From Escherichia coli (GTDB lineage: Bacteria > Pseudomonadota > Gammaproteobacteria > Enterobacterales > Enterobacteriaceae): 64,000 bases of DNA. The stretch lies in NCBI RefSeq assembly GCF_044647545.1, contig NZ_CP172818.1; one strand, 5' to 3'. The stretch's first letter is position 1. Each line of letters starts with the position of its first letter. Below are positions 41,875-42,000 of the stretch, piece after piece. The notes beneath the pieces are model-generated. The model saw nothing but the letters and a program-made list of their open reading frames with translations. It searched no databases and was not told where the DNA came from. The position numbers were made by a program, and so were the translations under genes.

Positions 41875-42000
41875 AATCTCAACAACATTATAAATAACCA
41901 CAAAAACTAACAAAATAAAAAAAATACAAAAAACATAAATACAACAAAAAAAAAAAACAAAAAAAAAAAAAAAAAAAAAAAAAAAAAACAAACAAAAAAA
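41875..42000. other. anomalous A-rich low-complexity block between yhgN and gntU
   Basis: About 125 bp almost entirely A with scattered C and T, including an uninterrupted run of about 38 A; the only ORF over it is an F-rich artefact on the minus strand. Confidence 0.75.

Follow-up and report, generated by a model that had tools for sequence, protein, structure and literature searches.

An assembly artefact is almost certainly responsible for the A-rich block between yhgN and gntU, which is neither a real genomic feature nor a new element. The sequence is non-biological and, with a probability of about 0.9, arose when a consensus was built from ST648-like reads along a K-12-like scaffold by reference-guided assembly or polishing. 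This verdict is based on the absence of the tract elsewhere, the K-12-like layout of the surrounding sequence, K-12 alleles beside one of two sister blocks, collinear degradation in both sister blocks and the loss of a terminator. The window, meaning the whole 64,000-nt stretch that was analysed, represents the E. coli chromosome from pck to past zntA.

The genes on both sides of the block were intact. The open reading frame of yhgN (41276-41869, plus strand) ended with 400 nt of exact ST648-type sequence, identical to strain FDAARGOS_497, and gntU (42063-43403, minus strand) was likewise of exact ST648-type sequence. The yhgN stop codon ended at 41869 and the gntU stop codon started at 42063, leaving a spacer of 193 nt. 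Three parts were distinguished in it: the junction CGTTCAA (41870-41876), the A-rich collapse (41877-42003) and 59 nt of normal complexity. The preliminary description had reported almost pure A directly after the yhgN stop, including about 38 uninterrupted A. A block was present there, but the composition over 41872-42003 was 75.8% A, 13.6% C, 9.8% T and 0.8% G, the latter corresponding to a single G, and the non-A bases dwindled from left to right (14/29, 13/45 and 4/56 across 41877-42003). The collapse ended with A12 (41946-41957), one C and A30 (41959-41988). These were the longest pure runs, so the figure of 38 has to be replaced by 30. Normal complexity had been said to return about 60 bp before the gntU stop; the return was at about 42004, at a distance of 59 nt from the stop. 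The minus-strand open reading frame at 41827-42057 had been dismissed as implausible, in agreement with its F-rich translation in the list of open reading frames; the A-rich block encoded nothing but poly-F.

By chance, about 3e-14 runs of A30 would be expected in 64 kb, and the 84.5 kb homologous region of the nearest relative had no homopolymer longer than nine bases. Together, these values ruled out chance as an origin of the A tract. Dinucleotide entropy decreased to 1.44 bits in the block, compared with a window median of 3.85 bits. Only three blocks of the window fell below 3.0 bits, at 311-710, 41861-42050 and 47981-48300, and the last of these, located between yhhY and ggt, was missing from the preliminary description. 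All three were located at island-polymorphic sites, with 0 mismatches over tens of kb between them. An Rfam scan of the spacer yielded only a chance miRNA match outside the block (E = 0.25). The remnant of an element with a poly-A tail was also considered, and BLAST detected no similarity to the block in 5,424 E. coli genomes.

The yhgN-gntU site was surveyed in 5,426 complete E. coli genomes, of which 5,424 matched the flanks. The A-rich block was covered in none of these 5,424. Two natural configurations were found: some genomes had a spacer of 56 nt, others a PsyrTA island of 3.48 kb. The short spacer was present in approximately 70% of the genomes, including MG1655, 042 and BS-04, and no A tract occurred in the spacers of these three. 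The comparison with MG1655 proposed earlier thus gave a spacer of 56 nt without an A tract, and the search for a similar tract in related strains gave 0/5,424 genomes, the nearest relatives carrying the 3.48 kb island. The island was present in approximately 1,650 of the 5,424 genomes, where it was annotated as DprA and a RecQ-family helicase. PADLOC identified full-length PsyrA (E = 5e-202) and PsyrT (E = 0) in it. PsyrTA is an anti-phage defence system composed of a RecQ-like toxin and a DprA-like antitoxin, and the island occupies the place of the 56-nt spacer. In FDAARGOS_497 (NZ_CP033850.1), it was located between yhgN and gntU (locus L007, 46029-49502), and it was also present in loci L005 and L006. 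In the O157 strain FDAARGOS_293, the helicase gene of the island was annotated as frameshifted.

The spacer of the window shared features with both natural variants and corresponded to neither. Its first approximately 7 nt past the yhgN stop resembled the left edge of the island. In the junction CGTTCAA, the C was as in the short K-12-type spacer, while GTTCAA agreed with the start of the PsyrTA island (GGTTCAAAC). Island-bearing genomes gave BLAST matches up to 41876, although a 7-nt junction is too short for significance on its own. The last 57 nt of the spacer derived from the 56-nt variant. In contrast to the window, both natural variants lacked an A tract, and the window had neither a working hairpin nor island genes. 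Neither psyrT nor psyrA was present in the 193-nt spacer and no similarity to the island was found. All nearest relatives of the window carried the PsyrTA island, and the isolate itself most probably has this 3.48 kb island at yhgN-gntU.

The right part of the spacer (42004-42062) was a corrupted version of the short spacer. It showed about 80% identity to the 56-nt spacer of island-less, MG1655-type genomes, from which it differed by four 1-nt insertions and five substitutions (alignment z = 15.3 against shuffles). On either strand, the natural 56-nt spacer formed a G+C hairpin of 8 bp (folding energies of -17.8 and -18.5 kcal/mol, z about -3), in keeping with a bidirectional terminator of the convergent genes yhgN and gntU. 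The copy in the window folded at -8.5 and -6.7 kcal/mol (z 0.2 and 1.1), and the hairpin was destroyed. A scan for terminator-like sites found none in the yhgN-gntU spacer of the window. Island-bearing relatives lacked the 56-nt spacer sequence altogether. The right part is therefore corrupted sequence of another kind of E. coli genome in an otherwise error-free window.

These observations bear on the possibility that the A30 tract is real DNA, namely the scar of a lost or replaced PsyrTA island that grew by replication slippage. If genuine, the tract would exceed every other homopolymer known from a core-genome spacer of E. coli by a wide margin and would be likely to act as a slippage hotspot. 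The intact flanking genes are compatible with such an origin, and a spacer would tolerate the insertion. However, nothing similar was present in the 5,424 E. coli genomes and the longest natural homopolymer nearby had nine bases. The adjacent conserved spacer had accumulated nine changes and lost its terminator, while the surrounding 62 kb had no change at all. Furthermore, two other blocks of different composition were demonstrably degraded copies of real elements. A genuine A30 tract was therefore considered very unlikely.

By its single-nucleotide differences, the window was of ST648 type. The best matches over 24 kb were ST648-type genomes (FDAARGOS_497, ECONIH1, MS6198 and others) with 100.0% identity, and the matching stretch in these genomes was about 6.1 kb longer than in the window, island included. 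Compared with FDAARGOS_497, there were 0 mismatches (100.000% identity) over 717-23136 and 23127-30001. In total, the window was identical to ST648-type sequence over about 62 kb, and the remaining differences from FDAARGOS_497 were confined to five discrete places: the pck-envZ spacer (1-716); an IS1 absent from the window at about 23130; 2,840 nt absent at about 30000; the A-rich block with the garbled spacer (41870-42060); and the yhhY-ggt spacer with the 3' end of ggt (47926-48597). The absent IS1 belonged to the rtcA-rtcB site, where the window had a clean empty site (23127-23136). The empty site may reflect strain variation, or the scaffold-based consensus may have dropped a further insertion.

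The layout of the window was that of another lineage. Alignment with MG1655 gave four collinear pieces, one of which ran uninterrupted across rtc and glpD-glgP, while another took in the garbled spacer. The large ST648-specific insertions, namely a toxin-antitoxin module, 2.84 kb with PstS-family genes and the 3.48 kb PsyrTA island, were each absent or garbled. A 65-nt K-12-specific segment was correctly absent. The glpD-glgP junction (29991-30001) was clean. The missing 2,840 nt comprised a hypothetical gene and two PstS-family genes and were present in all nearest relatives. The resulting layout was that of MG1655 and strain 1190 and reproduced the natural short allele base for base, with ST648 SNPs on both sides. 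This combination of the short-allele junction with ST648 SNPs occurred in 0 of 5,426 complete genomes, with a best full-length match of 93.1%.

The first sister block was located between pck and envZ (146-716), where the nearest relatives carried an intact RelE/ParE-NadS toxin-antitoxin module. In the window, the module was smeared into homopolymers and degraded progressively, followed by an abrupt return to perfect sequence at 717. Initially, the errors were scattered G deletions and G-to-A substitutions; they then increased to a homopolymer smear. The block was collinear with the module to its end, as the global alignment score reached z = 19.3 with the quarters in order, while the reversed control was near 0. 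Both module genes were destroyed and spurious K/F/P-rich open reading frames of 97-177 aa had appeared. The kinship between the A-rich block and the pck-envZ block suggested in the preliminary description was thus confirmed, the latter being a degraded rendering of a real module and of the same class. Mis-mapping of a multi-copy repeat was rejected for this locus, as 1,332 genomes carry the module in a single copy. A natural allele without the module, joining window positions 145 and 717, was also sought as a scaffold, and none exists.

The second sister block (47926-48277) was junk of 84% G+C between yhhY and ggt. It overwrote the last approximately 45 nt of yhhY, created a 300-aa fusion open reading frame and left yhhY truncated; relatives have 64 normal bases at yhhY-ggt. 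The block tracked IS1 in the orientation of the K-12 IS1E. The left terminus of IS1, GGTGATGCTGCCAACTTACTGATTTAGTG, read ggtgcgcaacttacgatgtg in the block, and IS1 positions of about 316-595 were collinear with it, with A/T bases dropped (z = 6-7.6). No ST648 relative had an IS1 at yhhY-ggt. K-12 carries a specific 3.49 kb island, yhhZ-yrhA::IS1E-yrhB, for which the window had only the junk tracking IS1. Of the K-12 island, IS1 is the one segment that reads from an ST648 strain would cover.

A halo of 12 substitutions extended into the 3' end of ggt (48322-48597). They lay within 320 nt and were followed by 0 substitutions in 15.4 kb, and they caused four amino acid changes in Ggt (R487W, Y502C, P561S and P571S). 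Between 48310 and 48525, the MG1655 allele was present at 6/9 ST648/K-12 polymorphic sites, compared with 0/61 beyond (binomial p 1e-8 to 6e-6). A natural allele of another lineage was rejected as the source of the 12 differences; the best genome match was 96.7% and the segment was a mosaic instead. Exact look-ups of the altered Ggt and of the yhhY-junk fusion protein returned no record. Six of the differences matched MG1655 and eight matched BS-04, so that the scaffold appears to be K-12-like but is not necessarily MG1655 itself. K-12 alleles were confined to the surroundings of this block. At the flanks of the A-rich block, the ST648 allele was found at 9/9 polymorphic sites in yhgN and 7/7 in gntU, corresponding to K-12 alleles at 0/9 and 0/7 sites, and the flank of the pck-envZ block likewise had K-12 alleles at 0/9.

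The two-lineage pattern would also be compatible with de novo assembly of long reads from a mixed or heterogeneous sample containing an ST648-like and a K-12-like strain, with a neural or majority-vote polisher writing junk where the strains differ by an island. Every junk block coincided with a presence/absence polymorphism of an island, a fine-scale mosaic of the alleles of two lineages lay beside the yhhY-ggt block, out-of-register voting reproduced the smear, and the RefSeq strain BS-04 came from stool. However, all four large-indel sites had the K-12-like layout, yet nearly every SNP elsewhere was the ST648 allele, and a mixed sample should have left minority alleles in more places. A mixed sample was therefore regarded as unlikely, and its assembly would equally be an artefact, leaving the verdict on the block unchanged.

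In contrast to the sister blocks, the A-rich part could be tied to none of the templates tried, which were the left end of the island, the whole island and its collapsed tail. Its left part was compared with a G-depleted copy of the left end of the island, without significance (z about -1). Comparison of the block with the complete 3.48 kb island, in both orientations and either raw or G-to-A collapsed, was not significant either. A G-to-A-degraded version of the last 134 nt of the island, which are purine-rich and start with TCTC, ranked in the top 0.4% of genome windows, and reversed and block-shuffled controls scored alike (z 1.2).

The missing template would be in line with a generative or gap-filling sequence model that wrote the blocks without reads, and the gradual drift, the low-complexity collapse and the abrupt return also resemble model degeneration. 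Against this origin, the pck-envZ block was collinear with the real module to its end and the yhhY-ggt block followed IS1 at a site where ST648 relatives lack it. Such tracking presupposes a genuine signal or a particular scaffold. Exactly the polymorphic sites had K-12 alleles, and a deposited RefSeq genome showed the same defect with the same boundaries. Sequence infill of this kind was judged extremely unlikely.

The RefSeq genome concerned was BS-04 (NZ_CP172819.1), an independent 4.52 Mb record of a strain from stool, labelled "complete genome". It was the only genome that aligned through the pck-envZ block. BS-04 contained its own smeared RelE/NadS module, with the start and end points of the template and the G-loss spectrum as in the window. 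This junk (locus L002, ~420-1010) was annotated as the hypothetical protein WP_400165612.1. A second junk block was located at glpD-glgP (locus L011, 30241-30500) and comprised A20, A11 and T14 runs and a frameshifted pseudogene. BS-04 differed from the window in being another strain, with flanks diverged by 2.6-4%, and its yhgN-gntU spacer had the normal 56 nt, without a counterpart of the A-rich block. The junk in BS-04 demonstrates that this class of artefact occurs in deposited genomes. A literature search on BS-04 found nothing relevant. The Ggt protein of BS-04 had a unique accession.

Under the favoured reading, a consensus of ST648-like reads on a K-12-like scaffold, small differences such as SNPs and small indels would have been converted to the alleles of the isolate, which results in 100% ST648 identity over about 62 kb. 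Large insertions and replacements would not have been representable on the scaffold. At yhgN-gntU, the island replaces the scaffold spacer and is not inserted into it, so that a caller would emit island bases, a collapse and a corrupted spacer in this order. Reads from the island, having no homologue of the scaffold spacer, would have contributed a few correct bases (GTTCAA) before collapsing into poly-A. Thereafter, the scaffold's own spacer would have been emitted, corrupted by misaligned reads.

The smear was simulated by lining up noisy copies of an insert at one common anchor and calling the majority base in each column. With the toxin-antitoxin module as the insert, the simulation gave about 20 correct bases, followed by homopolymer runs that reflected the local composition. 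A simulated run of 44 A occurred in the stretch of the module where the window had A19 and A20 and BS-04 had A28 and A32. With the PsyrTA island, the simulation gave mixed runs and no A-dominated run. The pattern shares features with reference bias and structural-variant collapse. The layout of the scaffold was kept at large indels, the islands of the sample were missing, and scaffold alleles occurred beside a breakpoint while the SNPs elsewhere were fully those of the sample. A plain reference-guided consensus usually leaves the reference spacer untouched or inserts Ns, whereas here 132 nt of A-rich junk were generated. This implies a caller that tries to emit the inserted bases. No description of this failure mode was found in the literature.

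The A-rich block is thus relevant for data hygiene and not for biology. In the source record, at least four loci within 64 kb are rendered wrongly: the PsyrTA and PstS-family islands are lost, RelE/NadS is scrambled, yhhY is truncated and Ggt carries four false residue changes. Gene callers would turn the junk blocks into spurious proteins. At island sites, neither the source record nor BS-04 is reliable. Similar records could be detected by a simple screen that combines low dinucleotide entropy with the layout of one genome occurring together with the SNPs of another.

Diverged repeats with about 77-87% identity were also present in the window, at 55790-55896 and 61625-61731 and at 59862-60731 and 61960-62829. 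The latter pair, of 870 nt, corresponded to the positions of the paralogues livK and livJ in MG1655 and appeared ordinary.
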